A stretch of DNA of 64,000 bases from Candidatus Babeliales bacterium (GTDB lineage Bacteria > Babelota > Babeliae > Babelales > JBFXEV01). The position numbers and the translations under genes are program-made. The notes beneath the pieces are model-generated. The model worked only from the letters and a program-made list of their open reading frames with translations. It ran no database searches and was not told the origin of the DNA. The DNA lies in contig JBFXEV010000001.1 in the NCBI GenBank assembly GCA_050179755.1, positions 841,994 through 905,993 of the forward strand, in the 5' to 3' direction. Below, one piece after another: positions 1,373 to 61,763 of the stretch (positions are counted from its first letter, which is position 1; the number at the start of each line of letters is the position of its first letter).

Positions 1373-2281
1373 ATGAACAGACATTTTCTATATTATTTAT
1401 TTGTCGGGGTATTAATTGCTGGTAATTCCATGATTTACTCTATGGATCAGAGTGCCCATATTACAACTTTAAATGATGCAATTGTGAAAAAGGATAATCA
1501 ACAAGTGGCAAGACTGTTGGCCACAGGTATAAATCTTAAATCGCTACCAAAAAATGTAACTTCGCCTCTTTTTTTGGCAATCACCCAGAATTCACCAGAA
1601 ATAGTCGAGCTGCTGATTAAAGCTGGTATTGATGTGCGCGCCGATTTAGATCGTGTTTCTCCTGAGGAGTATGAAAAGAGATCTGATATTCAGATGTATG
1701 CTTCACCATTGCATTACGCAGTGAGTGAAGGGTATGTGGATATTGCAAGAGCCCTTATAGAAGCAGGTGCGGATATTCACGCGCCAATGAACTTGGTTTC
1801 AAAAGGTGAATATCAAGATGTATCAGAAAAGATTGGACAAAATTCTTTAGATATAGCAAAGAATTTTGCAAGTTCGCCGGCGAGTTCTCAATTGTTATTA
1901 AGGCACAATGAAGATGAACGTGTTGCACATTTAAGAGAAATTGCTAAGAAAAACTTGTTGGGTATGGATTTGTTACGCGTTTTATTAACTACCGTTTCAC
2001 CTCAAGAAATTCAGCATATAATACCAGCAGTTATTTCATTAACAATGCGCCAAACATTATTGGGTAAAGATGTGGGGAGATTAATTGTTGCTCAGCTTGT
2101 TCCTCAAATTGTACGTGCAAAACTTACTTTGGCAAAACAATATCCAGTAGCTGAATCAGAAGATCAGCTGCGTGTGGATATTATAACTAGTATTAATCGA
2201 GTGATTAAAAAGTCACCGCGTATTAAAGCTGCTATAAATAATCTTCAAGCCTGTTCTGCCGCAAAATCAGAAACCAACTAA
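1373..2281 (+). CDS. Secreted ankyrin-repeat protein
   Basis: Signal peptide ending IYS-MDQ; SPLFLAI, SPLHYAV, LIEAGADIHA; AAGGA RBS upstream. Confidence 0.88.
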   Translation: MNRHFLYYLFVGVLIAGNSMIYSMDQSAHITTLNDAIVKKDNQQVARLLATGINLKSLPKNVTSPLFLAITQNSPEIVELLIKAGIDVRADLDRVSPEEYEKRSDIQMYASPLHYAVSEGYVDIARALIEAGADIHAPMNLVSKGEYQDVSEKIGQNSLDIAKNFASSPASSQLLLRHNEDERVAHLREIAKKNLLGMDLLRVLLTTVSPQEIQHIIPAVISLTMRQTLLGKDVGRLIVAQLVPQIVRAKLTLAKQYPVAESEDQLRVDIITSINRVIKKSPRIKAAINNLQACSAAKSETN

Positions 2282-2335
2282 TCAGCAAAAACGATTTGCT
2301 TCAGTAAAATTACTACACCAAAGGTTATTTTTTGT

Positions 2336-2371
2336 GCTTCTACTTAAAGGGATTTAGCTTTAAGTAGAAGC
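2336..2371 (+). terminator. 14-bp perfect inverted repeat, probable terminator
   Basis: gcttctacttaaag-ggatttag-ctttaagtagaagc, 55 nt after the stop at 2281. Confidence 0.55.
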
Positions 2372-2570
2372 TTACATTCGTTTGATTTGACCAAAGTGGC
2401 ATTTTTATTCTGTAGTTAGATTGAATATTTTCTAATAAGTAGTAGGGTTGTTTTTCTGCGTAATAATTCAGATTGAGATAAAAACTATTGATTTGCAATA
2501 CACTATTTTGGTATGCTGTCTGTAGGGGATAATCCTTTAGAATACGTATTTTTAATCAGATAGGAAGCTC

Positions 2571-4193
2571 ATGAATCGTCGCATATTAATAATTTTAATT
2601 TCTTGTTTGCAACTTAGCATGCTTAGTGCTGATTATTCAGGATTAAATAAGCAGCTTTTTGAAGCGGTGACAAAAAATGATGTTGTGGAAGTTCAACGAT
2701 TAGTAGAGTTGGGCGCTGACGTTAATGCAAAAGATGAGTTTACTTCTACACCGTTACATATCGCTGTATCTAAGAACAATTTTCCATTAGTTGCATTTTT
2801 GCTTGAGAAAGGCGCAAATGTCAATGCGAAAATAAAAGATGATTTAACAACTCCGTTGCATGCTGCTGCAATTAATGGTTTTGCGGACATAGCTCGATTA
2901 CTTATTAAAGAAGGTGCACATGTTAATCTAAGAGATAAGGATGATAAAACGTCGTTGTGGTTTGGAACTTTTGAAGATCATAAAGATGTTGTTGCAGTGT
3001 TACTCGAAAATAAAGCAGACATGTATGCAGAAAATAAAGAAGGCAATACACCGTTTCTGGCAGCCCTTGCTCATAGTGAGAGTATTCTACCATTATTTAT
3101 TGCTGCCGGCGTGGATGTTAATAGGAGTCTGCATTTTCTCGACCAGGAATTAACACCACTACAATTAGCAGGCATTTGGGGTGATGCACATGCTATTTCA
3201 TTACTCACAAGAGCCGGTGGTGATGTTAATGCCAAAAATAAAAATTCAGGAGCAACTGCATTACATAATGCTGCTTGGCTCGGTCATATAAATGCTGTTA
3301 AAGAGCTTCTTAAGTTGGGCGCACATGTTGATATTCGAGATAATGAAGATGCTAATCCTTTGCATCGCGCTGTACAAGAAGGAAAACTAGATGTTGCTTA
3401 TGCCTTAATTGACAATGGGGCTGATTTGTTTACTAAAAATAAAAATGGGGTTGCACCAATAGAGCGTGCAGCCGATGACGAAGCAAAAATAGCTTTAATA
3501 GCTCATACTCCTATACAAGAAATTACACATATAATTCCGGGCATTTTAGCATTAAAAAAAGCAACACCAGAATTACCTAAAGATATGCGCAACTCTTTGC
3601 TTCTTGAAATGATTAATGGCTTGGTAAGTGCAAAAATAAAGAAAGCAAAAGAGTATTTGCCTCAGCAAACAGTGGACACACTGAAAGTCGCATTTGAAAA
3701 AGGCATTAGCAATTCTATTAAAAAGTCACCAAGAATGCAAAAGGCTCCGCCAAGCGCGGATGTATTGCCGCCATATATTGCGGTTGCTAGCGATGCAAAA
3801 CCAGCATTTACAGGGCCATTGCCGCCTTCGCCCTATGAACAACCTGCACCAACTACCAGCATTACGGCATTAGAACGTCAACAATTGCTAGCGGTTCTCA
3901 AGGATTTAAACTTAGAAGAGGAAAGTGAGATTGGTACACAAGAAGTTACGCCTGCGGCTTTTCTAAAAGATCTTAAACTTGCAATGCGAGATATTCTTAA
4001 GGGTTTTAACATGCAAACACGTAAATATATAGGATATGCAGGTAGACATGAACCTTTTCATAATCGTTTTTTAAGAGACTATGAGGCTGCATTAAAGTTA
4101 TTAAAAGCTGCAAGCCCACATGATGGAGAAATTAGTCTATTTGAAGAGTGGCAACCGTATCTTGAACAGGCGGTTGATCAATATCCACAATAG
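2571..4193 (+). CDS. Secreted ankyrin-repeat protein (~8-9 repeats) with Pro-rich linker and helical C-terminus
   Basis: TPLHIAV, TPLHAAA, TPFLAAL, TPLQLAG, TALHNAA, NPLHRAV; signal peptide; AGGA RBS. Confidence 0.92.
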   Translation: MNRRILIILISCLQLSMLSADYSGLNKQLFEAVTKNDVVEVQRLVELGADVNAKDEFTSTPLHIAVSKNNFPLVAFLLEKGANVNAKIKDDLTTPLHAAAINGFADIARLLIKEGAHVNLRDKDDKTSLWFGTFEDHKDVVAVLLENKADMYAENKEGNTPFLAALAHSESILPLFIAAGVDVNRSLHFLDQELTPLQLAGIWGDAHAISLLTRAGGDVNAKNKNSGATALHNAAWLGHINAVKELLKLGAHVDIRDNEDANPLHRAVQEGKLDVAYALIDNGADLFTKNKNGVAPIERAADDEAKIALIAHTPIQEITHIIPGILALKKATPELPKDMRNSLLLEMINGLVSAKIKKAKEYLPQQTVDTLKVAFEKGISNSIKKSPRMQKAPPSADVLPPYIAVASDAKPAFTGPLPPSPYEQPAPTTSITALERQQLLAVLKDLNLEEESEIGTQEVTPAAFLKDLKLAMRDILKGFNMQTRKYIGYAGRHEPFHNRFLRDYEAALKLLKAASPHDGEISLFEEWQPYLEQAVDQYPQ

Positions 4194-4249
4194 TTCATAC
4201 AATGATCTCTGAAAATTTCAAATAATATAATTTAAAAAATCGCTTAGAT

Positions 4250-4278
4250 TTGACCAATATGCCAGATTTCGCTATTCT
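4250..4278 (+). promoter_or_regulatory. Sigma70-type promoter for tRNA-Leu
   Basis: TTGACC-N17-TATTCT; an alternative TATAAT lies at 4284-4289. Confidence 0.5.
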
Positions 4279-9608: not shown

Positions 9609-12600
9609 ATGAAGAAGCACTTATTATATTTTATTCTTTTAGTGTCATCGTACCATGCTCATCTGTATGCAGTGATAAAAGGTTCAACAAGTCAAGTTTC
9701 AATTGAACCAATCTTTCAATTTAAAGCTGCTGATCTTGATAATAAAATACAAGGATTTGCTTGGTTTAAAGATGGATTTAGTTTAGAAAATAATGCAACA
9801 ACGTGTGATTTTGCCTCGGTCTATCCTGTTTCGGGCGTAGTTGCGTTGCATGGTGGCACGCTTAATTTACTTGAAGATCTTATTCTTAAAAATAGTACTA
9901 CGCTTGAAAGTTTTGGCACTATTGTAGGTAATCATTCTCTCTTTGAATTGTGTTCAAGTATAACCGTATTGCCTCCAGATACTGGGGTATTTGAAGATGT
10001 CTATGTGGTATTATCGAATTCGGTGGTGGTACAAGGGCAAATTAATTGCGTTGGTGCAACGGTAATCGATGGCAGGGGCAATACGCTTGATTTACAAGAA
10101 AAAGCATCATTAAAGATTGCGCCACATAGCACACTGCATTTAAAAAACATGATTGTTAAAGGCGTTGGGCTTGATAATATTTCAGGCTTAGATGATTCTG
10201 CTACGTTAATTCTTGATAACGTAACATGGGTGCAATCTGCTGATGTTATTTTTGAATCTGGCGCATTGTGTATACAAAATAAAGTAGAATTCTGCGGTAA
10301 TTATGCATTTAGGCATACAAGCTCCAAACCGGTATCTATAGCGGCACAATCAATGTGGTCGTTACTTGCAAGTATAGATTTAAAAATTGGTAAACATCTT
10401 AATGCCGGTGCCGTTGATCCATTACAATTTCAAGATAATAGTTCCATATTAAAATTATCAAATTGTTCGCTTTTTGTAACTGAAGGTGGATTGCGGTTAA
10501 CAAAAGGCAAGTTGATTTTTGATGAAGAAGTTCATATTGATATGGCATCAACTACTACCATGAACGGTATTATTATTGGTGATGGCGTTGAGAGTGATAA
10601 TGATTTTACGTTACGGTTTAATGCTGGCGTATCAGTAACGCATAAAGGGCATACAGCGTATAACAATGTCAGTCCAGATAAGATTATTGCATTGTCAAAG
10701 AATGCTACCATTATTCGAGATGAAAATTCAAATATTTTTATGGCACGCAATGCGACTATGCCGCCTATGACCTTTGAATCGCTTTCAAATGCAGTGCAGC
10801 CAATACAGCATGCACCGGGTGTGGAGATTGTATATCAAGACGATCAAATAGTATTTCCTGCGGTAGCTTTTGATATTACTGGTTGCCAGAATATGCCCAA
10901 TACCTTTTGTTTAAAGGGTTCTGATGAAATATTTTTTACTAAAGGATCATTGCCCCTTAATTTACAAGTTTCTGGTAAAAATAATTTGATGCATGGTAAT
11001 GGCGGTATCATGGGTCTGCTTTCTTTGCAAGATACTGCTGCAGAATTAATTTGCTCGGTGTTGGGGCCAATAAGTACGTCGCCTCATTTGAATGGTGGTT
11101 CTTTAATTTTAACCGGTGATTTTGCATTGGGGCCAGACATTGTGTTGTCTGGCTCTGGTACGGTGAATCTTAATTCGTTTTGTTTTACCTGTGGTTCAAA
11201 GGATGCAGTCTGGCAAGGGCAATTACTCTGGCAAGGGACTAATGGATCTTTAGAAATACAAAGTCAAGTAACATTACAAGGAACCTGGACTATTGATGGG
11301 CAAGTAACTATTGATGGCAATGGGAATACCTTGGATATTTCTGCTGGCGATATTGTGGTCAATCCTCATGCCAAGTTACTATTGAAAAATATTCGACTTA
11401 TAGGGATTAAAGGTTCAAATATACGCTGTGTTGATGATACTGGTAAGTTATCGCTTTTAAATGTAATTTGGGTGCAAACAGATGATGTGCTTTTTGATAA
11501 GGGCTCTTTACAGTTTGTTGATGAAGTTGATTTTATTGGTTCTTATACCTTTGTATATGATAGCTCAGTAACAAGTACCATAGCTGTTAAGTCTACGTTG
11601 CAAATAGGCAACGGCATGCAGTTTTCAATTGGTCGTACCCATAAAGAGGGGGCAGCACCTCTCTATTTTGAAGATCGCACGAGTACGCTCTCGCTTGAAA
11701 ATTGTGCTTTACAGGTAACGGGTTTTGGTTTGCCATTGGCGCGTGGTCGCGTGTTGTGTAGTAGAGACGTTACCATTGATATTTTGTCTACAGACACAAC
11801 AAATGGTATTGAACTTGGCACTGGCGCGCCAGATGACGACATGATTTTTGAATTTTATCCTGGTTGTGTTGTTCGTTTTGTGGGTGGTCACGTGGTTTAT
11901 AATGTTACGCGGCCTGATAGTGTTGTATCTCAATCTACTACTGCCAAATTAGTGCGCGGTGCAAAAAACGTATTTTATATGAAACGCAATATTTTGCTTT
12001 CAAATTTAACAATTGATGCTTCTATATTATCAGTTACCCACGTGCCCGATGATGTATCGTTTGACTTTGAAAATTGTGAATTTGTCTTGCCGGCAGGCAA
12101 AGTTGTGGTGAGCGGATCTCGTTACAATGCCTACACTAATGTATTGAAGAATGGTGACTCTCTTTTTATAACCTCTGGTGTAATGCCTATGGCAACTGTT
12201 GTATTGGGTAAAGGTACTAGCATAGTAGGCAATGGTAGCTTGGGAGGGCCCGTAGTGTTTGCCTCACCTGAATCAGAACTTGTTCTTGCACTAGATGGTT
12301 TGGTGAGTAAAGATATTACTCTTAACGGCGGTGTTCTTACTTTAGGCCAAGATACGCACTTTGCAAGCGGTGCTGTTATTACTGATTCAGGAACGGTTAA
12401 TGTAAGTAATTATCGTATGCAATTAACATCACAAGAAATAGTGTGGCAGGGTGATATTACGTGGCAAAGTACTAATGCAATAATTTCATTAAATGCGGAT
12501 GTTGCTCTTGCAGGTTCCTGGATTGTGCAAGGTAATTGTACGTTGCAGGGTAATGGTAATGTACTTGATTTGCGAGCGGGTGGTAGCATAGAAGTTGCGC

Positions 12601-14570
12601 CAGGCTCTGCGTTAAAATTAGTTAACGTGCGTATTATAGGCGTACATGATAGTAACGTACGTTGTGCGGATGATACAGGATCACTCATTCTTGATCAAGT
12701 GGTGTGGGTGCAAACAGGGAACGCAACGTTTGATCATGGCAGAATTCAGATTATTGACGAAGTAGACTTTTTAGGTTCGTATACTTTTTCCTATCAGAGC
12801 ACACAATCAAGTTTTATTCATAATGACTCTACGTGGCATATTACTGACTTAATGCGATTTACTCTAGGCAAGCAATCAGTGCCAGAAGCACAAAATCCAT
12901 TATTGTTTGCAGGTCAAACAGCAACGCTTTCTTTAGATAATTGTACTATTGCAATTACGGATGCCGGGTGGGATTTGCTCAAAGGATGTATTAAGTATAA
13001 GCGTAATGTTGATATAGAAGTGCTTTCTACAAGTTCGGCAGCAGGTGTATTTCTTGGCAATGGCATGCGTGAAAACGATCCGCTTGTATTTTTTGATCCT
13101 GGTTCAAATGCTCGTTTTGTAAAAGGGCATATTATTTATAATATTGTAAATCCTGCAAACTTGCATTCTGATTCCACGTCCGCGCAAATGCAGCGGCTAG
13201 CGCAAAGTCACTTTGTGATTAAGCAAGACGTATATCTTAAGAATTTTACGGTGGATGCAAGTCCCTATGCAATTACCGAGGTTGATGTGGGTAAGCGATT
13301 TGCCTATAAAAATTGTATTTTTAGTTTGCCAAATGGTCGCGCCGAAGTAACTGCCTCGCGGTATAATGAAGTTTCAAATATTCTTTTTGCAGATGACTTA
13401 TTATTGCTTAGATATGGGGCATTCCCTATGGCAACATTAGTGGCCGGGCAAAACGCTATGATTGCAGGAACGGGTGATGTGGTTGCTCCTCTAGTATTTG
13501 TCAATCCCACAGCAACGTTGTTATGTGGATTTAGTGGTTCATTAGGAGCCAACGTTATGTTAAATGGAGCACGTTTTATAGTAATGAATGACGTTCATTT
13601 TGCAGGAGATCATCAATTTATTGGGGATGGCACTGTGGTGGTAGGTGATAATCGTTTATCTTTTGGCCCAAAAGATGCCACATGGTCTGGCAATCTAGTA
13701 TGGCATGCTGACAACGGCAATATTGATATAAAGTCTAATATTTCATTAAATGGAACTTGGACGTTTAGTGGATCAAGTTGCTTGCTTGATTGTAATGGCA
13801 ATACGTTAGAGCTATTAGAAAATGGCAAACTTATTATTAATGATAATTGTACGTTACATATAAAGAATGCTCAAATAAAGGGAATACGTGGCACTAATAT
13901 TTGCGCAATAGAAGATAGCAGCAAGCTTATTCTTGAAAATGTCACGTGGGTACAACAGGACGAGTATCAATTTGAACATGGATCACTTATATGGCAACAA
14001 GATGTTGTTATGGAAGGTGGCATTTTTAATTATAGATCTAATCAAACAAGTCATGTTGCTGACCATTCTTGTGTGTGTTTGGATCAAGATTTTATTTTTA
14101 ATTATGAACCAGAAAATGGTGATACCAATTTGATAGCATTAAACGATGAGTCATCTATGCTCGAGCTTAATGGTGCAATAATACGTGCGCCCTATGGTAT
14201 TGCCTTTACTCAAGGAACGTTTATATGTAAAAAAAATGCTACGCTTATTTCTTCCCACGAGCAAGGCATTACGTTTGGAACAGGCAATGCTGATAATGAT
14301 TGTACGGTAATGATATATAGTGGCGTACAGTTGGTTGTTGCTGAAGGTGCTTTGAACTATAACAATAGGGCACGCTCCTCATGGCAGTCAGGCAATAGTT
14401 TATCAACAGTGTATTTTGCAGATACTACAACATTAAATGTATATGCTACGTTAGATCTTGGTGGCGGAGAATTTATGTTTGGTAACCATACGTTGCTTAA
14501 TCGAGCAGCTGATGCTGATATAAAAGGATCAATAACCTTACTTGGGGAGTTATCTTTTGGTACTATCTAG
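9609..14570 (+). CDS. Secreted 1653-aa repetitive beta-solenoid-like surface protein (four ~413-aa modules)
   Basis: Signal peptide HLYA-VIKGS; xDGxGNTLDL...VxWVQ block recurs at 10065, 11310, 12543, 13785. Confidence 0.85.
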   Translation: MKKHLLYFILLVSSYHAHLYAVIKGSTSQVSIEPIFQFKAADLDNKIQGFAWFKDGFSLENNATTCDFASVYPVSGVVALHGGTLNLLEDLILKNSTTLESFGTIVGNHSLFELCSSITVLPPDTGVFEDVYVVLSNSVVVQGQINCVGATVIDGRGNTLDLQEKASLKIAPHSTLHLKNMIVKGVGLDNISGLDDSATLILDNVTWVQSADVIFESGALCIQNKVEFCGNYAFRHTSSKPVSIAAQSMWSLLASIDLKIGKHLNAGAVDPLQFQDNSSILKLSNCSLFVTEGGLRLTKGKLIFDEEVHIDMASTTTMNGIIIGDGVESDNDFTLRFNAGVSVTHKGHTAYNNVSPDKIIALSKNATIIRDENSNIFMARNATMPPMTFESLSNAVQPIQHAPGVEIVYQDDQIVFPAVAFDITGCQNMPNTFCLKGSDEIFFTKGSLPLNLQVSGKNNLMHGNGGIMGLLSLQDTAAELICSVLGPISTSPHLNGGSLILTGDFALGPDIVLSGSGTVNLNSFCFTCGSKDAVWQGQLLWQGTNGSLEIQSQVTLQGTWTIDGQVTIDGNGNTLDISAGDIVVNPHAKLLLKNIRLIGIKGSNIRCVDDTGKLSLLNVIWVQTDDVLFDKGSLQFVDEVDFIGSYTFVYDSSVTSTIAVKSTLQIGNGMQFSIGRTHKEGAAPLYFEDRTSTLSLENCALQVTGFGLPLARGRVLCSRDVTIDILSTDTTNGIELGTGAPDDDMIFEFYPGCVVRFVGGHVVYNVTRPDSVVSQSTTAKLVRGAKNVFYMKRNILLSNLTIDASILSVTHVPDDVSFDFENCEFVLPAGKVVVSGSRYNAYTNVLKNGDSLFITSGVMPMATVVLGKGTSIVGNGSLGGPVVFASPESELVLALDGLVSKDITLNGGVLTLGQDTHFASGAVITDSGTVNVSNYRMQLTSQEIVWQGDITWQSTNAIISLNADVALAGSWIVQGNCTLQGNGNVLDLRAGGSIEVAPGSALKLVNVRIIGVHDSNVRCADDTGSLILDQVVWVQTGNATFDHGRIQIIDEVDFLGSYTFSYQSTQSSFIHNDSTWHITDLMRFTLGKQSVPEAQNPLLFAGQTATLSLDNCTIAITDAGWDLLKGCIKYKRNVDIEVLSTSSAAGVFLGNGMRENDPLVFFDPGSNARFVKGHIIYNIVNPANLHSDSTSAQMQRLAQSHFVIKQDVYLKNFTVDASPYAITEVDVGKRFAYKNCIFSLPNGRAEVTASRYNEVSNILFADDLLLLRYGAFPMATLVAGQNAMIAGTGDVVAPLVFVNPTATLLCGFSGSLGANVMLNGARFIVMNDVHFAGDHQFIGDGTVVVGDNRLSFGPKDATWSGNLVWHADNGNIDIKSNISLNGTWTFSGSSCLLDCNGNTLELLENGKLIINDNCTLHIKNAQIKGIRGTNICAIEDSSKLILENVTWVQQDEYQFEHGSLIWQQDVVMEGGIFNYRSNQTSHVADHSCVCLDQDFIFNYEPENGDTNLIALNDESSMLELNGAIIRAPYGIAFTQGTFICKKNATLISSHEQGITFGTGNADNDCTVMIYSGVQLVVAEGALNYNNRARSSWQSGNSLSTVYFADTTTLNVYATLDLGGGEFMFGNHTLLNRAADADIKGSITLLGELSFGTI

Positions 14571-40498: not shown

Positions 40499-40515
40499 AG
40501 CGTTCTTTCTACACA

Positions 40516-43747: not shown

Positions 43748-44234
43748 AGTTTTCCTTTAATTGAGTTTGTCTGCCTTCGCTTTGTTCATAAGCGGCGGCG
43801 AGTGTTGATACTGTTTTAGTTTTATCAAGTGCTAATACCAATTGGCTTACTATCGTGCGCGCTTCATGATGCTGCAGTAATTGTGCAAGAAGCATTTCTT
43901 GCTTTGTTGGTGCGCGTGATGTTATTGGCAGTGCGCCATGCCATTCGCAATATTTATACTGCTCCGGGTTTAGCGTTTTAAATTCCATTAACGGAGTCCA
44001 CCCAGCGCCAATTCTTTTTAAGAATGTAGCGTTTGCTGGCATAAAACGAATTTGACTCGGTGCAATTGTGATAATGCTTGGGCTTTTTTCGTTTGCGTTA
44101 TCATAAAATGATGCATGCTCCTGTGTGGCATTATGTAAGAAAAAACCAAAGCTACTGTTTGATTGTTCTTGCATTGCATGTACAGCAATATACAACGTTG
44201 TGCTCATTGCTAAAAGTAGCATATGCATACGCAT
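43740..44234 (-). CDS. Hypothetical secreted protein overlapping the SBP start
   Basis: Start MRMHMLL after AAGGA (track start 44267); VHA-MQE; 8-nt overlap with SBP gene. Confidence 0.7.
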   Translation of the reverse strand: MRMHMLLLAMSTTLYIAVHAMQEQSNSSFGFFLHNATQEHASFYDNANEKSPSIITIAPSQIRFMPANATFLKRIGAGWTPLMEFKTLNPEQYKYCEWHGALPITSRAPTKQEMLLAQLLQHHEARTIVSQLVLALDKTKTVSTLAAAYEQSEGRQTQLKENYE

Positions 44235-44570: not shown

Positions 44571-45458
44571 TTGGCTTTATACTTTCAAAAAACATTAGAG
44601 AGACTTGTGCAAGATGTCTATGATATAAAGAGCGGCAAAGTAACCAGATGGGATCTTGTGCAGCGTGATTTAGGGCAACTAAAAGCACAATGGGGTCAAT
44701 CAAATGCAAGAGCATATACACTTCTTAAGTATGCTTACTCTAATTTAAATAAAGAAGCCGCACTGTATGGAGTAGAAAAAATTACTGAAGTTGGCACAGA
44801 GATGTTTTTAACCAATCAAGCAATCAGTGGTTTTGGTCACTTGATTGGCAATGGCGCGCGCGCTTTAGATGATATAATACAAGCTGGTAATGGTATTGAT
44901 AAATTTAATAACTTGCCATTGAATGGCCAAACGCTGCAAGCCTTTATTGGCTATGAAGCTGTTCTTGCAGAAGGACGAGCTGCAGTAGCTCAAGCAATAG
45001 GTGTTGCAGGAGCTGTCGCGGAAGAAACGCTTGATGGCGCTTCAAAAGTGCTTCCGGCAGTTTTTGCAATGAATAATGGTGGCCCAGGCGGTAATGATCC
45101 AAAGAATCTAGTTAGTGCGGGAAAGATTCAGAAATATTTGAAACATCCATATCAAGCTAAATACAAAGTCAACATAAAAAGCGTTGAAAGAATAGCTAAG
45201 AAGGTTGCGAGACTTGATTTCAATAAACGACGACATATACTTCAAGTAAAGCATGCTTGGGATAGATTAGTTGTTGATCCCAATGATTGGGATGCTGTAG
45301 CTAGAATAATCACAAAAGTGATGAAAGAAGGTAGAGTGGAAAAGAAATTTAATCATTTTATAAAATATGCGGAAATTTTTGGAGAGAGAGTTGAAGTTCA
45401 GTATATTGTAAAGCATAATAAAACGATGATAAGTGACGCATGGATAAGAACGATATAA
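44571..45458 (+). CDS. Polymorphic toxin C-terminal part, Ntox35-like predicted RNase; probably 5'-truncated
   Basis: HILQVKHAWDRLV...W..V..II..VM..G...V.V...ISDAW after a G/A-rich linker (MNNGGPGG); TTG start without RBS or signal peptide; in-frame TAG at 44550. Confidence 0.65.
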   Translation: MALYFQKTLERLVQDVYDIKSGKVTRWDLVQRDLGQLKAQWGQSNARAYTLLKYAYSNLNKEAALYGVEKITEVGTEMFLTNQAISGFGHLIGNGARALDDIIQAGNGIDKFNNLPLNGQTLQAFIGYEAVLAEGRAAVAQAIGVAGAVAEETLDGASKVLPAVFAMNNGGPGGNDPKNLVSAGKIQKYLKHPYQAKYKVNIKSVERIAKKVARLDFNKRRHILQVKHAWDRLVVDPNDWDAVARIITKVMKEGRVEKKFNHFIKYAEIFGERVEVQYIVKHNKTMISDAWIRTI

Positions 45459-45898
45459 GAGAATTTAAGAATTCTTTATTGCAAGGTGATTTTGATAAGG
45501 CTAAGTTATATATAAAAGATCTCGATAATGAAAAAATTTATGATTTAATTGTAGAAATAAATTTTAATGATGAATCAATGGTAAGTTATTGCTTTTTGGC
45601 TAGTTTATTGCATGATAATGAAACAGCGGAGCTGCATATCAATGCTGCAAGTTTTTTAACATTTTTTCTATTTCATATACAAGGGGCATATAATTCGGCT
45701 TTATATCATTTGCGTCAGGCTATTAAATTAGATCCAGATAATATTGAATATCAAGAGCTCCTATTGCATTTTAATGAAATACCGGATCGTTTAGTTAGTC
45801 AGGACGAGGCAATAGCAGTTGCCAAAAATATTCTAAAAGATAAATCAGATAGCTCTGTAGCTTTGAGAATATTAAGTGACTATAAAATAAATAATTAA
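45440..45898 (+). CDS. Probable cognate immunity protein (TPR-like helical)
   Basis: Overlaps toxin 3' end; acidic, low GC; GAYNSALYHLRQAIKLDPDN. Confidence 0.7.
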   Translation: MDKNDIREFKNSLLQGDFDKAKLYIKDLDNEKIYDLIVEINFNDESMVSYCFLASLLHDNETAELHINAASFLTFFLFHIQGAYNSALYHLRQAIKLDPDNIEYQELLLHFNEIPDRLVSQDEAIAVAKNILKDKSDSSVALRILSDYKINN

Positions 45899-45917
45899 TT
45901 AAAACAGTTATAATTCC

Positions 45918-46352
45918 ATGAACGAAGTTATTAAAGAATTAATTTTAAGAGGCTCGTTTGAAGAAGCAAATTACTTACTAATTTCATTTGGAGAACAGGA
46001 AATAGAAAGCTTTTTAGTAAATTTAGCATGTGAGTCTCAAAGTATAACGGCATATGGCTTTATAATTAATAATTTAATACAGCAGGAAACAATATATTGG
46101 CATAAAATGGCAGCAGTTTTGTTCTTAGCGCCTTTAAGTCGTGTTATAGGAGCTTATCCTTTAGGCCTTTATCATACAAGGAGAGCAATGGCGCTAGATT
46201 CTAATGATGTTGGTGCAAAGTCATTGTTGTTGTCTTATCATAATTCTCCTGCTCCTACAGTAACAAAAGAAGAGGCAATTGAAGTCGCAAAAGAAATTGT
46301 TATTACCCAATATAATGATGAATTTACTATCACTGATCGGTTAAACGCATAA
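45918..46352 (+). CDS. Second immunity-like paralog
   Basis: GAYPLGLYHTRRAMALDSND and EEAIEVAKEI align with the preceding gene. Confidence 0.7.
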   Translation: MNEVIKELILRGSFEEANYLLISFGEQEIESFLVNLACESQSITAYGFIINNLIQQETIYWHKMAAVLFLAPLSRVIGAYPLGLYHTRRAMALDSNDVGAKSLLLSYHNSPAPTVTKEEAIEVAKEIVITQYNDEFTITDRLNA

Positions 46353-49306: not shown

Positions 49307-50847
<1,541 letters not shown>

Positions 50848-51418: not shown

Positions 51419-54439
<3,021 letters not shown>

Positions 54440-54541
54440 TTACAAAAAATTTGAAAAGACTAGACGTTTTTAATAAATTTGTATATCATATATATTTCAG
54501 AGACATGAGATAAATTTGTTCTTATGCATGAACTAAAAATT

Positions 54542-54657
54542 TCCTGGTGGAAATAGTTGTAGGGCAACACCCGTTCCCATTTCGAATACGGAAGTTAAGT
54601 TTACAACGCTGATGATACTTGGCTGGTAACGGCCTGGAAAAGCAAGTACTGCCGGGA
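54542..54657 (+). rRNA. rrf: 5S rRNA
   Basis: tcctggtg...ctgccggga terminal helix; CACCCGTTCCCATTTCGAATACGGAAGTTAAG. Confidence 0.96.
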
Positions 54658-54783: not shown

Positions 54784-55080
54784 ATGAACCAGCGATTACT
54801 ATTTTTGGGATTGTGGCTAATGAGCGTTTCTGCAGTTTATGCAATGGATAAAGAGCAAGAACAAAAAAGCATGGAAAGGCAATGCAAAGAAGAGCATCCA
54901 TTACCGGTAAGTAATCGTCAACGCATGCTAGATCGGGCAGTGATTGAAATAACACATATCGATGATCTTGCAGAACGAATGGCTATTGTGAGAAAGTATG
55001 AGCTACAAGGGCTAACTCTAGACGAAATGTTTGAACGAAATGAACAAATATTGCGTGAGCATGCCAGAACTACTGGTTAG
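54784..55080 (+). CDS. Small secreted hypothetical protein
   Basis: AAGGA RBS; signal peptide LLFLGLWLMSVSAVYA-MDK. Confidence 0.75.
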   Translation: MNQRLLFLGLWLMSVSAVYAMDKEQEQKSMERQCKEEHPLPVSNRQRMLDRAVIEITHIDDLAERMAIVRKYELQGLTLDEMFERNEQILREHARTTG

Positions 55081-55145: not shown

Positions 55146-55910
55146 ATGTACATGCGCGTGTTGTTTCTGGGATTGTGGTTAATGAGCAATGCGATAACTT
55201 GTGCAATGGAAGAAAATACTCTTGCTCTTTATAGAGGAACTCCTTTGCAACAAGCTCAAAGAAATATTGCTTCACAAAAGTTATGTACCGCTATTTCTCA
55301 AGCACGGTTTGATGACGTGGAAAAAATTATTTTAGATGATCCACTTATTGTAAGATATTCTCCAGACGCGTTATTTGTTTCAAGAGCGGTAGCAATTGCT
55401 GATTATGATCAACGGATATTAAGCCTTGTACTAAGAGCTGGTGGAAATCCAAATGAAGTTAACCCTAAAGATGGTAATACACCCGCGCATATTGCCGCTT
55501 GCCTATTACATAGCGAGGCATTATTGTGTTTGCATGCCAGAAATGCAGACTTAACTGCAAGAAATCATGCGGGCAAAGCACCAGCTGACCACATTCTTAA
55601 TGGTGGCAATATTAATGAGAAGAAGAGAGTTGAGATTGCAGACTGGTTTCGTAGACATGGAATACCTGTTAGGATTCACATGCGTGCACACGTGCCTTCA
55701 GACGCACAAGCGCAATATGAGCAGAGAATTCGCTTAATAGATGCGGCATTGACAGTTATGGGATCTACTGCCGATTCAGAACAACAGAATGCTATTTTGA
55801 GCTTGCTTACGAAACAAGGGATAAATATAGAAGAAATACAGCAGCGCACACAATTACCTATGAATAGAAAAAATCTACGTGGGCTTATAAGGCAGGTGAA
55901 CAAATATTAA
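55146..55910 (+). CDS. Secreted ankyrin-repeat protein
   Basis: Probable ATG 55146 after GAGGA (track start 55080); TCA-MEE; DGNTPAHIAA, ARNHAGKAPAD. Confidence 0.82.
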   Translation: MYMRVLFLGLWLMSNAITCAMEENTLALYRGTPLQQAQRNIASQKLCTAISQARFDDVEKIILDDPLIVRYSPDALFVSRAVAIADYDQRILSLVLRAGGNPNEVNPKDGNTPAHIAACLLHSEALLCLHARNADLTARNHAGKAPADHILNGGNINEKKRVEIADWFRRHGIPVRIHMRAHVPSDAQAQYEQRIRLIDAALTVMGSTADSEQQNAILSLLTKQGINIEEIQQRTQLPMNRKNLRGLIRQVNKY

Positions 55911-56559: not shown

Positions 56560-57335
56560 TTAATGCAGTGCAGCTTGGTGGCTACTTACTAAAAAACTCA
56601 CTTTATTTTTATATAGCATTGTTTACGCATCCTGCAATACAGATTATACAAGAATCTGATGTTCTCTATGTAACGTCATCAATACGTGATGAAACGTACA
56701 ACAATGTTTGGAAGACAAACTTTTCTGTTGAAACGCTCGATCAACGCATCAACGGTATTAAAAATATTTTTGGTGAACAACCATTCATTTGGTGGGTTGA
56801 TCCTTCTGATACACCTACTGATCTTACTAAATATCTTGAGCAGCATAAGTTCACCTTCGTGGAGCAAACAACAATTATGTATCATGCACAAAAGGAACTG
56901 TTGCCTTCTTGTACAGGCAATATTCAGGTGCGCAGGGTTTCGACTGCGCAGGAACTAGATGATTTTTGTACGGTTAAAGGAGGCACGCCAGAACAGATTG
57001 CGCTTAATAAGCAATTATTTGCTACATGTTGTGAGCAACAAAGATATCCGATTGAATTATTTGTCGCTTATCATGATCACGATCCGGTGTGTATTGCGGT
57101 TACCGTGCAACAAGATGGTATCGGCAGTATTCACTCTTTTGCTACCAAGCAAGAAGCACAAGGTAAAGGATACGGCACGCGTATGCTTAATTACGCGCTT
57201 GAGCGATTGTATAGCGCAGGATGCTCAATTGTTTTGCTTGATTCTAGAGCGCAAGCAATTAATTTTTATGAAAAAAATGGCTTTAAAGCAACCGAACTTA
57301 TTATTAAAGCGTATAGATCTCCATTATGCGCGTGA
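56556..57335 (+). CDS. GNAT family N-acetyltransferase
   Basis: QGKGYG acetyl-CoA motif and AINFYEKNGF; ATGA overlap with ogt. Confidence 0.88.
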   Translation: MINAVQLGGYLLKNSLYFYIALFTHPAIQIIQESDVLYVTSSIRDETYNNVWKTNFSVETLDQRINGIKNIFGEQPFIWWVDPSDTPTDLTKYLEQHKFTFVEQTTIMYHAQKELLPSCTGNIQVRRVSTAQELDDFCTVKGGTPEQIALNKQLFATCCEQQRYPIELFVAYHDHDPVCIAVTVQQDGIGSIHSFATKQEAQGKGYGTRMLNYALERLYSAGCSIVLLDSRAQAINFYEKNGFKATELIIKAYRSPLCA

Positions 57336-60300
57336 GGGGCGCAGTGCTTGTATAAAAAAGGCTGCAAGCGCACAGCAAAGAACTATGGTCAATAAGGTAC
57401 CAAGCCATATACCAGGGTAAGCGTTAAGTAATGCATCTTGCACTGCATCAATGCTCAAGTGTGTAGCAATAAGTATTGGTACAATGCAATAATTAAAGCG
57501 TAGAGCAACATAGTATACCGCAAATAATATCATGCCAATGCCCCAGCCAACAAGTAACCATACAAGCAATGATGACGATGGTTCAAAGCCTGCAAAAGCA
57601 ATGCCAAGGAGTATGCACACCAGGGTAAGATAACCATAGTTTTTGCGCCCGTAATCACTGAGCATATTAAGGCCATGAAGTATAAAAAGACTTATAAGTG
57701 TTGAGGCAATCATAGTGGTAGCCGTTCGTAACCCCATACTCAGCCACGGTAAATAAGCACCGGCATTACTAATATCAAGCCAGAGCGGTTTGCGTTGAGG
57801 CAGTGCCCAACTTGCAAAAGCGGTAGCGCCTGAAATCAACAAAGCAATACTTATACCCTGTAGCAATGTTTGTACAAGAGATTTAGAGCATCGGCCTTTA
57901 AGTAGGCCAATCGTATACCCTGCAAGCCATCCAAGAAACACCGTAATACCAACAGTTTGAATGAAAGTCATTGCAATTAGCATGCCCACTTGCCGCAGAT
58001 ACGGCGCGCTGGTGGCAAAGTCTATAGTGAGTACTGGCCAGAGGTTCCATAATTGTATGCAGGTTTTAAGCACCAGCAGCAAGACTGTAATAAGTGCAAA
58101 ACGCACGGCAAAAGGGTGAATTGGCCGTCTTCGTATAATAAGACCTGCCAGTAGCATCATCAGCGCCACCAAAAGAATAAGCGAACCATTTTTGACAAGT
58201 TGTTCTAATTTTGTTTCAAATTCATACGCACGCTCCCATGTTTCGGGAATATGCAGTACGCGGTCATGACTGGTAATTTGGTCACCGCCAAGAGTGATGC
58301 GTATACGCAGTTGACCTTCACCCAGATCAGGGCCTTGTTTGAGGCGATAGATAAATTCCCAATCTTTTCGATTAGGTTGTTTTTCTTCGCGAGCTGAAAC
58401 TTCTACTACGTCGTCAGGGGTTACATTGTAACGCGTTTTTAGAACTTCATGCGTCATTGCGCGTGCTTGGTCTTGTGTTAGAGTTGCACCTTCTTGTTCT
58501 TTTGGTAGTACGTGTTGATATTCCACAACAGAACCATCATGGCCCACGTATATATCATATTCTTCGGCACTTTTTGCAATATCCGGTGCATCAAATTCTG
58601 CGCTTCTTACTTTCCAATGAGGTGCCATTATAAACTTGCCATCTAGTTCATTATAAATTTCTTTGCCCTTGGTGCGCCATACAAAGAGGTTATCTTTGGT
58701 GAGTTTGCCCCCCACATTTGAAAGTACGCTTAGTTCTTTTGGTATAGTAAGATTAAACTCCTGAGCTGATTGATGTGCACGTTCTACTGCTTGTTCGCGT
58801 GTTATGCTCAGTGGTTTTACGTCTTGGGCTTTATGTCTGAGCAGGCCCCATGTAGTCAATCCAAGTAAGCCTATAAAAAGAATAGGTAGGCGATAGAGTG
58901 AAGGTTGTATTGGTTCTTTATGCATTGGGTCTTCCTTTGCCGCAGCGCCTTGCATAGGGGATTGCCATAATCCGTTGTACCAACGTTCTGATAACGTGTG
59001 GAATCTGCCTTTTACAATGCGTGCGTACAGCAATACCATTAGCGGCACAAGACCGCATAAAATAACTATTGCTTTATTTACTATGCTACCCGGTGCATCA
59101 GAAATAAAAATGGGTAACGCCATGAGAATAAGATCATATATGACGTGTGATATAATGGCAGGAATCAAGCCAAAAGCAAGGTACAATCCGCCAAATACAA
59201 ACGATGGAATAATAAGTTCTACCAAACGAGCATACGCAGGCTGTGCAGGGTAACTTGCATGCGCTCCTGCAAAAATGATAGCTTGTAAAATCATGGCGCC
59301 ACCAAGCCACAAATATTTTTTGCCAAACCGTTTTGCAAGAAGCATTGCGCTTGCAAGGGGTACGGCGCGGAATAAGCATTCTTCCCAGAACCCTGCACGT
59401 AATGCAGTAATAACTGATGAAAACCAAGGTGCGTAACTTGCAAGCACGTTGGGGTCAATCAATGTATCGGCAGGTGACCACCAACCAAGATATTTAAAGG
59501 AAAGTAAATAAAATAAGGTGACAAAAATAAAATCAAATCCAACCATAAGATAGCCGCCGATTGTTCTGCCCACAATCTGCCATGATGAAGCTACTTCAGG
59601 GTCTGCAGATGGCCATAATTGTACTTGATTAGGGAACGCCTTGCGTGTTAAGTTTTCTGCTGCCATAAAGCTGAGGTAGAGCATTAAAAACGTAGACCCA
59701 AATGACATTAATATCGATTGTACGATGCTGAGTATAAACGTAAGTGTGGAAGTAGTAGTTTGGTAATACATCCACCAGAGTGAATAGTTATTAACCATAC
59801 TGAGCGCCATACCAAGCGCAATAAATAATGCCCAATAAAACGGAGCTCGTGAGATTAACCAATGACGGTTTGATCGTACTAAAAGAATAAGCCCCAAAAT
59901 GCAACCAAGTAAAATATACAGCAAAAACATTGCAGCGCTGGACCACGTGGCAATACTATTATTGGCAGAACGCATACAGGCATAGCGGCGCTCAAAAGAT
60001 TCTGGAATTTTTAAATCAACCATTGTTTTGGTTGGTTTGTTACCCGAGATTCGAATTGTTACGCGATACGGCGCATCAGCAATTTTTGCATCGGTGCGTT
60101 CATAGACAAGCGTATGGTCAATGCGGCCGTTTGGCTTTTCTTCTGTAGAATGTTCTACGAGCATATGTTTGCTAAAATCAATAAACCAGTTGGTGCTTGC
60201 AGATTCCTGTGCAAGTTGCTCAGCTTGCGCTTTATCAAGATTAGGCAGTTCCATGCTATCAGGTAGTAATTCTCTAAAGCCGTATGGTCTGCCATCAGGC

Positions 60301-60671
60301 ATAAAAAATATCATGGCTTCATGTTTTTCCATTGGTTTAAAATGGCGCACTTGCCAGTAATAGGGCGCAAAATATTCTTCTTTAATGACGTCGCGGAATT
60401 TCTCTACACCGCCAGCCTCAAGCTGAATATATATTTTTGCTTTATCATCACTTGCAAATATGATCGCTTGGCGATGTTCTTGTGGCCCAATGTTATGAGC
60501 TGTGGTAATTTCTTGCGCTCTGGCAAGAGCAGATGATCTATCCATAGTAAGATCAATAGAGACTATGGGAAACGCTATCGGAAAGAGTTGAAACGCAGCA
60601 TAAGCCAAACTAAACGAGATTGCTGTTGCCAGTACCCAGAACCATGATTTATTAAAGATAGTTGCTTGCAT
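57324..60671 (-). CDS. Large CPBP (CAAX/Abi) family intramembrane metalloprotease with duplicated extracytoplasmic domain
   Basis: WEECLFR, FAGAHA, HVIYD motifs; two similar soluble domains (KIPESFERRY / HIPETWERAY). Confidence 0.85.
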   Translation of the reverse strand: MQATIFNKSWFWVLATAISFSLAYAAFQLFPIAFPIVSIDLTMDRSSALARAQEITTAHNIGPQEHRQAIIFASDDKAKIYIQLEAGGVEKFRDVIKEEYFAPYYWQVRHFKPMEKHEAMIFFMPDGRPYGFRELLPDSMELPNLDKAQAEQLAQESASTNWFIDFSKHMLVEHSTEEKPNGRIDHTLVYERTDAKIADAPYRVTIRISGNKPTKTMVDLKIPESFERRYACMRSANNSIATWSSAAMFLLYILLGCILGLILLVRSNRHWLISRAPFYWALFIALGMALSMVNNYSLWWMYYQTTTSTLTFILSIVQSILMSFGSTFLMLYLSFMAAENLTRKAFPNQVQLWPSADPEVASSWQIVGRTIGGYLMVGFDFIFVTLFYLLSFKYLGWWSPADTLIDPNVLASYAPWFSSVITALRAGFWEECLFRAVPLASAMLLAKRFGKKYLWLGGAMILQAIIFAGAHASYPAQPAYARLVELIIPSFVFGGLYLAFGLIPAIISHVIYDLILMALPIFISDAPGSIVNKAIVILCGLVPLMVLLYARIVKGRFHTLSERWYNGLWQSPMQGAAAKEDPMHKEPIQPSLYRLPILFIGLLGLTTWGLLRHKAQDVKPLSITREQAVERAHQSAQEFNLTIPKELSVLSNVGGKLTKDNLFVWRTKGKEIYNELDGKFIMAPHWKVRSAEFDAPDIAKSAEEYDIYVGHDGSVVEYQHVLPKEQEGATLTQDQARAMTHEVLKTRYNVTPDDVVEVSAREEKQPNRKDWEFIYRLKQGPDLGEGQLRIRITLGGDQITSHDRVLHIPETWERAYEFETKLEQLVKNGSLILLVALMMLLAGLIIRRRPIHPFAVRFALITVLLLVLKTCIQLWNLWPVLTIDFATSAPYLRQVGMLIAMTFIQTVGITVFLGWLAGYTIGLLKGRCSKSLVQTLLQGISIALLISGATAFASWALPQRKPLWLDISNAGAYLPWLSMGLRTATTMIASTLISLFILHGLNMLSDYGRKNYGYLTLVCILLGIAFAGFEPSSSLLVWLLVGWGIGMILFAVYYVALRFNYCIVPILIATHLSIDAVQDALLNAYPGIWLGTLLTIVLCCALAAFFIQALRPSRA

Positions 60672-60745
60672 TAATGACCCTTTAATTCATAAAAAGAATT
60701 TCTATTTCTTCTTTAAGGATAGTTGGGCCAAAAAAAATAAGCAAT

Positions 60746-60778
60746 AAAAGAGCGAGTGTTATGGTGTAACACTCGCTC
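60746..60778 (-). terminator. Intrinsic terminator after 60813..61379
   Basis: gagcgagtgtta-tggtg-taacactcgctc, followed by TTTT on the minus strand. Confidence 0.75.
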
Positions 60779-60812
60779 ATAAAGTTATGTGGTCAGATTT
60801 ATATGTTGAGAA

Positions 60813-61379
60813 TTAGTCAGCGTTCAAGTTCATGCCGTCAAGAACCATTGCAATGAGTTCTTCGTTTTCTTCATCATCTGGGCTAGAATTTTCAGGAACT
60901 GCAGGAGCTACAGGCGCTGCAAGTACCAAGGGCGCTCGTAAAGCCTCTGCCCACTGAGTGAGTTGATTAAACGAGCGTTTTTGTTTTATCAGATGAGTAG
61001 GAATCGCGCTTTTACAACGTGCAAGAGCAACAAAGTAGACAGGAGGTAAAAAGCCATCTTCTTCATACGCTTGTCTGTATTCTTGGTAAAACTGCTGATA
61101 AAGCGCCTTGTAATGATTTATGGCTGCTTGATGTGTCTGCTTTTCATCGAGAGCTTCAGCGCAAGCAGTAAGTTCTACCCCAATAGGTTTTGGTAAAGAA
61201 TTATGCTTATTTTCATTTTTTCTTGAATTTCGTTTAGACTTTGTTGCTCGTTCAATCTGTTCTTTTTTTGGTGCACGGCGATCGGTAAGATCCCGCGAAT
61301 TGCTGCGTTTCATAGCATTTATTTGAAAGCAAACAGTAATAATGGCACTAAGAGTTATGAGTAAGTTTTTGTTTTTCAT
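60813..61379 (-). CDS. Secreted hypothetical protein with basic N-terminus and acidic tail
   Basis: INA-MKR; K/R-rich stretch; core shared with 61389..61763. Confidence 0.75.
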   Translation of the reverse strand: MKNKNLLITLSAIITVCFQINAMKRSNSRDLTDRRAPKKEQIERATKSKRNSRKNENKHNSLPKPIGVELTACAEALDEKQTHQAAINHYKALYQQFYQEYRQAYEEDGFLPPVYFVALARCKSAIPTHLIKQKRSFNQLTQWAEALRAPLVLAAPVAPAVPENSSPDDEENEELIAMVLDGMNLNAD

Positions 61380-61388
61380 GTGGATATC

Positions 61389-61763
61389 CTATAACGATAC
61401 TTCGTCAAAAATTTCATCGGTGCTGAGAGACTCATTCGTTTTTGGTTTGTTTTGAGGCGCTTTCAGCATTTTAGTGACAATTTTTAAATTACCAAATTTA
61501 CCTTTAAGGCGTAGTTGATCTTGCGGCACTTGGTTGTAATACTTTTCAAGTTCCTGATAAAAATAGCCTGGTAAGTAAGCACGGCATTGTTGTGCCGCTC
61601 GGTACTGTGAATTAAGAAGATAAAACGCTTCTTGTAGCTGATTTTCTTGTGCAGGAGACCAAGTAAGCTGAGTTGTTTGTTTTGGTGCTTTTTCCATAGC
61701 CATTGATTCCGCTGATAAGGCAGTGAAAGCTAAAAATAATAGAATACGTGATATATGTTTCAT
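61389..61763 (-). CDS. Secreted hypothetical protein, paralog of 60813..61379
   Basis: AGGAG RBS; SMA-MEK; YRAA....YLP...Y..L......P......F..L core. Confidence 0.75.
   Translation of the reverse strand: MKHISRILLFLAFTALSAESMAMEKAPKQTTQLTWSPAQENQLQEAFYLLNSQYRAAQQCRAYLPGYFYQELEKYYNQVPQDQLRLKGKFGNLKIVTKMLKAPQNKPKTNESLSTDEIFDEVSL

Follow-up and report, generated by a model that had tools for sequence, protein, structure and literature searches.

The DNA analysed here, a 64 kb stretch (the window) of contig JBFXEV010000001.1 from a Candidatus Babeliales bacterium (Babeliales, phylum Dependentiae), raises the question of why many of its putative secreted proteins carry a methionine directly behind the predicted signal peptide, and what that residue might do once the signal peptide has been cut off. 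Dependentiae are widespread, mostly uncultured protist parasites. A first-pass annotation of the window had listed eleven such proteins with Met at position +1 of the predicted mature chain, and all eleven N-termini translate as it gave them, their start codons, signal-peptide spans and inner ATG codons having been checked by coordinate (Table 1; in the text the lower coordinate serves as a protein's name, and a hyphen in a cleavage motif marks the predicted cut). As had also been reported, the residue at +2 is Asp, Glu or Gln in nine of the eleven (Asp in five, Glu in two and Gln in two), the remaining two having Trp and Lys. The strictly conserved Met after the signal peptide looks like an undescribed tag on mature secreted proteins that would be directed to the host.

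Methionine at the predicted cleavage site

Signal peptides were called with a hand-made predictor, which looks for a hydrophobic stretch free of charges with permitted residues behind it at positions −3 and −1 and is blind to the residue at +1. Once polytopic membrane proteins and one spurious open reading frame (ORF) inside an rRNA gene had been removed, the window held 20 signal-peptide-like proteins, and Met stood directly after the best-scoring −3/−1 site (the top site) in 9 of these and after one or another permitted site in 11, compared with a Met frequency of 1.5% elsewhere in the same proteins (binomial P = 6.6e-12). Against these 9 of 20, Gln occupied +1 at the top site in 1 of 20. 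All eleven proteins passed the hydrophobicity and uncharged-run test, with signal peptides of 18-23 residues and one of 31; a typical Sec signal peptide has a short basic n-region and a hydrophobic h-region of about 8-15 residues, and measures about 18-30 residues in all. A six-frame scan of the window, which regained 10 of the 11 known cases (43740-44234 fell under the hydrophobicity cut), found no extra ORF with a signal peptide followed by Met, the other matches being internal membrane segments or spurious frames.

The eleven proteins had been described as unrelated, and this did not hold up: blastp pairs 37143 with 38155, 39986 with 40516 and, over the signal peptide, 54784 with 55146, 60813 and 61389 have a common motif as judged by eye, and the set collapses to about 7 families. 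Counted by family, Met is found at the site in at least 7 of 16 cases (P = 2e-9 to 7.5e-8). Comparison loci were gathered as relatives of the window's ABC permease at 41865-42752. The nearest of these relatives (77% identity) lies on a complete 'Candidatus Babeliales' chromosome from a metagenome-assembled genome (MAG), here locus L001; 14 further relatives, of 44-51% identity, came from MAGs titled Babeliales, Dependentiae, TM6 or unclassified. At L001, Met directly followed an allowed site in 12 of 15 signal-peptide-like ORFs, or in 11 of 13 once membrane proteins had been filtered out, and it followed the top site in 9 of the 13. At least five of the 12 L001 cases (112, 2052, 12678, 13714 and 16140) have no blastp match to window proteins. 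The control consisted of 79 generic ankyrin matches (P0005-P0083, mostly from other lineages), of which 38 were signal-peptide-like; top-site Met occurred in 1 of the 38, against 18 of 33 in the window and L001 together (Fisher P = 4.6e-7). The first-pass annotation had staked its proposal on an excess of Met over background, and with the hand-made predictor this excess was strong in the window and L001. The reduction from eleven proteins to about 7 families, and the home-made nature of the predictor, would both favour an explanation by chance, paralogy or predictor artefact, but the family-level P of at most 7.5e-8, the recurrence of the pattern in at least five further unrelated L001 proteins and the 1 of 38 in the control make such an explanation hardly credible.

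A second possibility is that the inner ATG is an internal start that yields a cytoplasmic isoform, or that the outer starts are mis-called and the proteins have no signal peptide. The tagged residue is always encoded by ATG, and for 60813-61379 a public gene call, P0099, takes the inner ATG as its start. However, the Shine-Dalgarno sequences point to the outer codons. The 16S rRNA has the usual CCUCC tail at its 3′ end, and an AAGGA or AGGAG sequence stands at proper spacing before 10 of the 11 outer ATGs (duplex of −4 kcal/mol or lower), whereas none of the 11 inner ATGs reaches that value (range −3.5 to +1.6 kcal/mol). It is reached at 13 of 24 further gene starts and, among internal ATGs, at 18% of 301, so that the inner ATGs fall below even the internal-ATG background. 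The weakest of the outer sequences is that of 39986 (−1.6 kcal/mol), and the strongest among the minus-strand genes is the AGGAG of 61389 (−7.3), whose inner ATG, at −3.5, is the least weak of the eleven; in 1373, AAGGA precedes the outer ATG and no such sequence precedes the inner one. Furthermore, the segments upstream of the Met show n-, h- and c-region features that are conserved in kind among homologues. A ribosome-binding site before the inner ATG was the check that the first-pass annotation had proposed, and the scores rule against an alternative start at the inner Met, which would be expected to have such a site 5-10 nt upstream; an internal or mis-called start is accordingly very improbable. 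P0099 is a 166-aa call of the same sequence that has lost the signal peptide, and we read its start as an annotation choice. Since calls of this type drop the signal peptide, surveys based on public annotations could under-count the motif. The L001 orthologue of 39516 (12231-12674, 52% identity) starts at the ATG equivalent to the one used here and reads LIC-ME.

The cut itself was tabulated over 42 sites (11 from the window, 12 from L001, 7 from more distant loci and 12 from database proteins), at which the signal peptide is mostly 19-24 residues long. According to the von Heijne rule, signal peptidase I (SPase I) requires a small uncharged residue at −1, a small or aliphatic residue at −3 and no Pro at −1 or +1. 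The residue at −1 was Ala in 18 sites, Cys in 13, Ser in 5, Gly in 4, and Thr and Pro in 1 each; at −3 we found L, I, A, V, S, T or C, and at −2 mostly Y, Q, H or L, so that the −3/−1 rule fits all 11 window sites and 41 of the 42 overall. Within families, −1 alternates between Cys, Ala, Ser and Thr while the Met stays fixed, −3 is small or aliphatic and −2 is bulky. Variation of this kind, confined to the allowed sets, is expected of an SPase I site and places the Met at +1, in agreement with the cut predicted earlier from the window alone. The frequency of Cys at −1 is unusually high, and these 13 cases are restricted to three families of the gene island described below, where Cys alternates with Ala, Ser and Thr.

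Position +2 was constrained as well. Asp or Glu occurs there in 25 of the 42 sites (background 10%, P = 7.6e-15) and a small residue in just 1 (baseline 29-38%, P = 8e-6 to 4e-8); M-D, M-E, M-N or M-Q make up 31 of the 42, including 9 of the 11 in the window, and M-Y, M-W or M-L are found at five. Since +3 is often Arg or Lys, the preference is for a position-specific dipeptide and not for an acidic patch. Native starts in the window, counted by eye, have mostly K, N, I or S as their second residue. Met-aminopeptidase removes Met when a small residue follows it and is blocked by a large or charged one, and with small +2 residues nearly absent the removal of the exposed Met would be blocked.

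Other classes of leader were rejected. A lipoprotein lipobox reads [LVI][ASTVI][GAS]C, with Cys at +1, and is cleaved by signal peptidase II (SPase II); no lipobox was found in the eleven, Cys near the site occurs in only 3 of them, preceded by YTY, IAQ and TTL (placing Y, Q or L at −1), and this Cys alternates with A, S and T in homologues. The RR motif of the twin-arginine translocation (Tat) pathway occurs in 37143-38141 alone, is missing from its L001 homologue and is lacking in the other 10 of the 11. Type IV prepilins and pseudopilins have a short leader that ends in Gly, with Phe or Met next, a hydrophobic helix behind the cut and Glu at +5. They were excluded on the layout of the eleven, in which the hydrophobic stretch precedes the Met and polar sequence follows it; true pseudopilins (PF07963, PF08334) at loci L005 and L014 differ from them in appearance. 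The proteins do not belong to the Bacteroidetes Q-rule either, given the single top-site Gln at +1 among 20, and that rule serves as an analogue only.

Conservation and distribution of the methionine

Three alignments were used to follow the Met through two of the groups. When 37143 and 38155 were aligned with five L001 paralogues (alignment A1), the +1 Met was among 6 invariant columns of 472, and in an alignment of 39516, 39986 and 40516 with two L001 members (A2) it was among 4 of 205. A profile made from A1 and run against 1.84 billion representatives matched 14 proteins, all 14 of which have a signal peptide and then Met. These matches together with one more L001 member formed a third alignment (A3; 15 sequences, 19-37% identity to the first), in which just 3 of 510 columns do not vary, the first holding the start Met, another the +1 Met and the third a Gly. 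37143 belongs to this A1/A3 family. The Met of the first-pass annotation is hence a conserved one, and its conservation indicates that selection maintains it across many unrelated, fast-evolving families.

Smaller families gave similar results. The nearest homologues of 1373, P0002 and P0003 (33-35% identity), have the +1 Met as well; P0100, a homologue of 60813 with 49% identity, has kept ANA-MKR; and the L001 homologue of 40516 (11633-12184) reads LQC-MEH. The search with 55146, among 5.8 billion proteins in the length range 139-445 aa, returned a self-match only, so that conservation evidence is absent for this family.

The Met could also be a fossil start codon, a functionless initiator left behind when signal peptides were added upstream of ORFs that were once cytosolic or derived from the host. 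Domain types that are normally cytosolic (ankyrin, TPR, WD40 and NUDIX) do occur among the carriers, and the ankyrin repeats of 1373 start about 9 residues past the Met, as they do in ankyrin proteins that have no signal peptide. Nevertheless, all 15 A3 members have the Met, at 19-37% identity and with 3 of 510 columns conserved, and so do all 14 profile matches, which would not happen to a neutral residue. Among the homologues of 1373, of the A1 profile and of 60813 there is no natural homologue that lacks the signal peptide and starts at the Met, P0099 being the same sequence as 60813; +2 is Asp or Glu in 60% of sites, compared with a second residue of this kind in 1 of 23 native starts (by eye); and no remnant Shine-Dalgarno sequence is left at the inner ATG. 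Taken together, these points leave a fossil start improbable to a degree approaching that of an internal start.

Which proteins bear the Met is the second part of the question. Ten of the eleven window proteins have no Pfam domain and one (1373) has ankyrin repeats; in relatives, the carriers likewise have no domain, or have TPR, NUDIX, WD40 or ankyrin repeats. At 13 more distant Babeliales loci, the 7 genuine cases were all orphans or NUDIX, WD40 or ankyrin proteins, with one weak GNAT match, and Met was found in 7 of 51 orphan or eukaryote-like proteins vs 0 of 28 proteins with housekeeping Pfam domains, a weakly significant difference (P = 0.04). The proteins of the fibre locus in the window (9609, 14542, 16620, 17740, 32262, 33819 and 35259) had been said to lack the motif, and at +1 none of them has Met, which in 33819 stands at +2. 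The first-pass annotation had further proposed that the Met marks the effector set. This stood in so far as the Met is borne by orphans and eukaryote-like proteins and not by fibre-locus or housekeeping envelope proteins, but it failed for 409, 2571 and 4974, ankyrin proteins of the window that have signal peptides and no Met. Two of these (409-1089 and 2571-4193) are, by blastp, paralogues of 1373.

One ankyrin protein of locus L014 (4375-5448, minus strand) carries the cleavage motif in tandem, TLTQAQA-M ... TLTQAQA-M, which looks like a short duplication of c-region and Met.

Genes around the eleven proteins

The coordinates of the eleven proteins and of the rRNA operon are collected in Table 1. 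Other content of the window includes ankyrin-repeat genes, giant WD40 and coiled-coil proteins, and transporters.

Table 1. Met-bearing proteins and rRNA genes of the window
Feature	Strand	Description	Signal peptide	Met codon	Site
1373-2281	+	ankyrin-repeat protein, 302 aa	1373-1441	1442-1444	IYS-MDQ
37143-38141	−	orphan with hydrophobic segments, 332 aa	38049-38141	38046-38048	TYC-MWQ
38155-39405	−	Cys-rich orphan, 416 aa, 21 Cys, 3 internal hydrophobic segments	39349-39405	39346-39348	AQC-MDC
39516-39956	−	orphan, 146 aa counted from second ATG	39900-39956	39897-39899	TLC-MDS
39986-40498	−	orphan with C-terminal hydrophobic segment, 170 aa	40445-40498	40442-40444	IYT-MDK
40516-41088	−	orphan with C-terminal hydrophobic segment, 190 aa	41029-41088	41026-41028	IHS-MQQ
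43740-44234	−	orphan, 164 aa, upstream of ABC transporter operon	44175-44234	44172-44174	VHA-MQE
54784-55080	+	orphan, 98 aa, adjoins rRNA operon	54784-54843	54844-54846	VYA-MDK
55146-55910	+	orphan, 254 aa	55146-55205	55206-55208	TCA-MEE
60813-61379	−	orphan basic protein, 188 aa	61314-61379	61311-61313	INA-MKR
61389-61763	−	orphan, 124 aa	61698-61763	61695-61697	SMA-MEK
49307-50847		16S rRNA, rRNA operon			
51420-54440		23S rRNA, rRNA operon			
54543-54657		5S rRNA, rRNA operon			

Five of the proteins form an island (37143-41088, minus strand) that adjoins the ABC transporter and is syntenic with L001 11633-20885 (plus strand), where there are 10 genes in place of 5. Its genes belong to two lineage-specific families whose proteins have hydrophobic segments, either internal or C-terminal, and in some members Cys-rich blocks; the island proteins may insert into membranes. 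39986 is a paralogue of its neighbour 40516-41088. For 38155-39405, the search for Atlas look-alikes gave no usable feature match, and all structural matches had TM values of 0.33 or less.

Spread of a shared 5′ DNA cassette, comprising promoter and signal peptide, by recombination was considered as a source of the pattern and rejected. A blastn comparison of 170-nucleotide (nt) segments from the 5′ end of every signal-peptide gene in the window and L001 found too little common DNA: the matches were 20 nt between 54784 and 55146, 14 nt between two L001 neighbours, 14 nt between 33819 and 35259, which have no Met, and the orthologous permease pair. The 20 nt of 54784 and 55146 are 95% identical, and the two proteins have a 9-residue stretch of the signal peptide in common.

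The fibre locus (9609-35849, plus strand) encodes a series of signal-peptide proteins. Common N-terminal repeat modules are found in four of them (1653, 693, 358 and 4835 aa); the 693-aa protein has WD40 blades, and the coiled coils of the 4835-aa giant match ATG16 and tropomyosin-type profiles. The gene at 44571-45458 (plus strand) encodes a C-terminal Ntox35 toxin domain and is followed by two small paralogues, 45440-45898 and 45918-46352, which are 32% identical and of which only the first matches a TPR profile; the layout of 44571-46352 resembles a polymorphic toxin with immunity genes. At 35878-37139 (plus strand), a gene for an SbtA-type sodium/bicarbonate transporter overlaps one for a P-II-like regulator, a pairing familiar chiefly from cyanobacteria, which one would not expect in a parasite that depends on its host. 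The 1115-aa product of 57324-60671 (minus strand) has hydrophobic N-terminal segments and no Pfam match. Genes of the type II secretion system (T2SS) were not found in the window; T2SS pseudopilin genes (T2SSG, N_methyl) lie within a few kb of the ABC transporter in distant relatives, at L005 17342-20874 and L014 14081-15487.

Possible readers of the exposed methionine

In the accessible parts of the reports on Dependentiae genomes (PMC6561590, PMC4378268, PMC4776705), many proteins with signal peptides and many ankyrins are described, and the sole secretion system found is type II; in Chromulinavorax, signal peptides are present in 44% of coding sequences (PMC6561590). The scheme that we propose has five steps. 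Translation would begin at the outer ATG, as the start-codon data show; SPase I would cut behind a small residue, directly before the Met, to judge from the −3/−1 pattern and the variation among homologues; the Met would be retained as the first mature residue, +2 being almost never small and mostly Asp or Glu; selection, as shown by conservation, would preserve it across families that are unrelated and fast-evolving and have either no Pfam domain or eukaryote-like ones; and the exposed Met, in most cases with an acidic residue behind it, would be read after cleavage as a destination tag. The first four steps, taken jointly, are in our judgement highly probable. The best explanation overall, which we hold tentatively and with a little less than even confidence, may be that Sec signal peptides are cut by SPase I to expose a selected Met-acidic tag, and that this tag is read by a second export step. 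Taken alone, the claim that a second export step of the bacterium's own reads the exposed Met as a destination tag is possible, though we would sooner expect it to fail than to hold; it was preferred because many unrelated cargoes carry the tag and envelope residents do not, and because a huge signal-peptide proteome is paired with one known secretion system. It is doubtful that in a clade of Dependentiae the exposed residue acts as a linear sorting signal that selects Sec-exported proteins for release and host delivery, through the type II system or vesicles.

Several observations weigh against this scheme. The predictor was home-made and not a trained one. Its top site in 1373 (LIA-GN, scored slightly over IYS-MD) and in 55146 is not at the Met, and plausible alternative sites exist also in 37143 (VPA-S, five residues upstream of TYC-MWQ), 39986 and the L001 proteins 12231, 12678 and 14701, so that the Met of these proteins could sit at +3 to +6; the predictor excludes VPA-S of 37143 for its Pro at −2, and AIS-A of 39986 lies outside its scan range. 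The 42 sites are not independent, since about half come from two families, and because they were chosen for a Met after allowed −1 and −3 residues, the tabulation of these positions is partly circular; one of them, in P0094, has Pro at −1 and is a poor SPase I site. Sampling covered the window and 15 loci of up to 21 kb each rather than a whole proteome, and at the 13 more distant loci top-site Met was seen in 8 of 81 proteins, two of which are pseudopilins and hence not SPase I substrates. The three ankyrin proteins with signal peptides and no Met mean that the Met is not a universal mark. Finally, a tag of one or two residues holds little information, and T2SS substrates are not known to have a linear signal.

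The tag might instead be read by the host. The N-terminal acetyltransferase NatB is specific for Met followed by Asp, Glu, Asn or Gln, and a Met-Asp or Met-Glu end might mimic a eukaryotic N-terminus that keeps its initiator Met, leaving the effector stable, or acetylated as a host protein would be, with no destabilising residue in the sense of the N-end rule at its end. M-D, M-E, M-N or M-Q at 31 of the 42 sites and a +2 residue at 41 of them that would protect the Met from removal are consistent with this, as is a specificity limited to positions 1 and 2, like that of an N-terminal acetyltransferase pocket, with +3 often basic; the carriers, moreover, have no Pfam domain or eukaryote-like ones. 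On the other hand, five of the 42 sites are M-Y, M-W or M-L, and a hydrophobic second residue is reported to be destabilising when unacetylated; NatB acts mainly on nascent chains; a route into the host cytosol would be required; and the ankyrins 2571 and 4974 expose Asp and Gln, which are destabilising, yet persist. According to the accessible part of PMC3755998, the anthrax edema factor provides a precedent for N-terminal control in host cells, but Ala, Ser, Gly, Thr and Val, the usual +1 residues, are also stabilising. Ordinary +1 residues such as Ala or Ser being equally stabilising under the N-end rule, stability alone does not explain the Met. Reading by the host is therefore on the unlikely side, but it is nearly as likely as reading by a second export step of the bacterium.

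Alternatively, the Met may serve stability in the envelope and no sorting at all, either as the target of a periplasmic or extracellular enzyme that modifies it or as protection against one, such as an aminopeptidase. The Bacteroidetes Q-rule would be the model: there, a lineage-specific +1 residue marks SPase I substrates and is not a generic sorting signal (PMC5837995), and it is reported to raise the stability of extracytoplasmic proteins (PMC10653852), as far as the accessible parts of these papers go. The Met is lineage-restricted too (18 of 33 in the window and L001 vs 8 of 81 at distant loci), but only some of the signal-peptide proteins have it, and it is lacking in the fibre locus, the three ankyrins and the distant housekeeping envelope proteins (0 of 28), and no candidate modifying enzyme was identified. 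A pure stability rule is consequently improbable, and a destination tag read by a second export step is kept as the preferred reading.

Among known systems, the Q-rule is the closest. Like the Met described here, it involves a lineage-restricted preferred residue right after the Sec/SPase I cut in many unrelated proteins (accessible parts of PMC5837995 and PMC10653852). It differs in that Gln is cyclised to pyroglutamate and is found in most SPase I substrates, whereas here the residue is Met, a subset only is affected, +2 is constrained and the organism belongs to the Dependentiae, as an intracellular parasite of protists. Diatom plastid presequences, with a role for Phe at +1, and the lipoprotein +2 rule are precedents for sorting by a single residue beside a cleavage site. 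The lipoprotein +2 rule (Lol avoidance) and the lipoprotein export signal of Bacteroidetes also sort by residues near the cleavage site, which are often acidic; these depend on SPase II and Cys at +1, whereas the present proteins have no lipobox and their Cys, if any, is at −1. In the diatom bipartite plastid presequence, with its ASAFAP motif (accessible part of PMC4329603), the residue exposed by cleavage decides the next membrane passage, a one-residue sorting rule at +1, but the route is from the endoplasmic reticulum (ER) to the plastid, the residue is Phe, Trp, Tyr or Leu, and a transit peptide follows.

A functional likeness is offered by the matured export element (PEXEL) of Plasmodium, an intracellular parasite in which trimming of a leader leaves a short mature N-terminus whose second residue is acidic or an amide (accessible part of 10.1101/2023.07.12.548774). 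That system is eukaryotic and uses an ER aspartic protease at RxL-xE/Q/D with a variable first residue; no RxL was seen here, though no search aimed at it was made. The anthrax edema factor is Sec-exported, acts in the host cytosol, has a mature form that starts with Met and depends on its N-terminal residue for activity (accessible part of PMC3755998), but it is a single Gram-positive toxin with a dedicated translocon and not a proteome-wide pattern. Within the accessible parts of the literature, including PMC6561590, PMC4378268, PMC4776705 and PMC5837995, and with subscription journals and supplements outside this scope, no +1 Met in Dependentiae was described.

If the scheme is true, the conserved Met, in most cases with Asp or Glu behind it, would be a marker by which host-directed proteins of this clade could be recognised from sequence alone. 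Such a linear signal would be the first simple one for the release step, and the effector repertoire would become definable in the same way; together with the Q-rule of Bacteroidetes, there would then be two lineage-specific rules for the residue behind the signal-peptidase cut. The finding carries a warning for annotation, since gene callers that start at the inner ATG drop the signal peptide, and public proteomes may hide the pattern. A change of the Met to Ala offers a concrete handle on sorting or stability, and the exposed residue bears on how Dependentiae separate host-directed proteins from those of the envelope.

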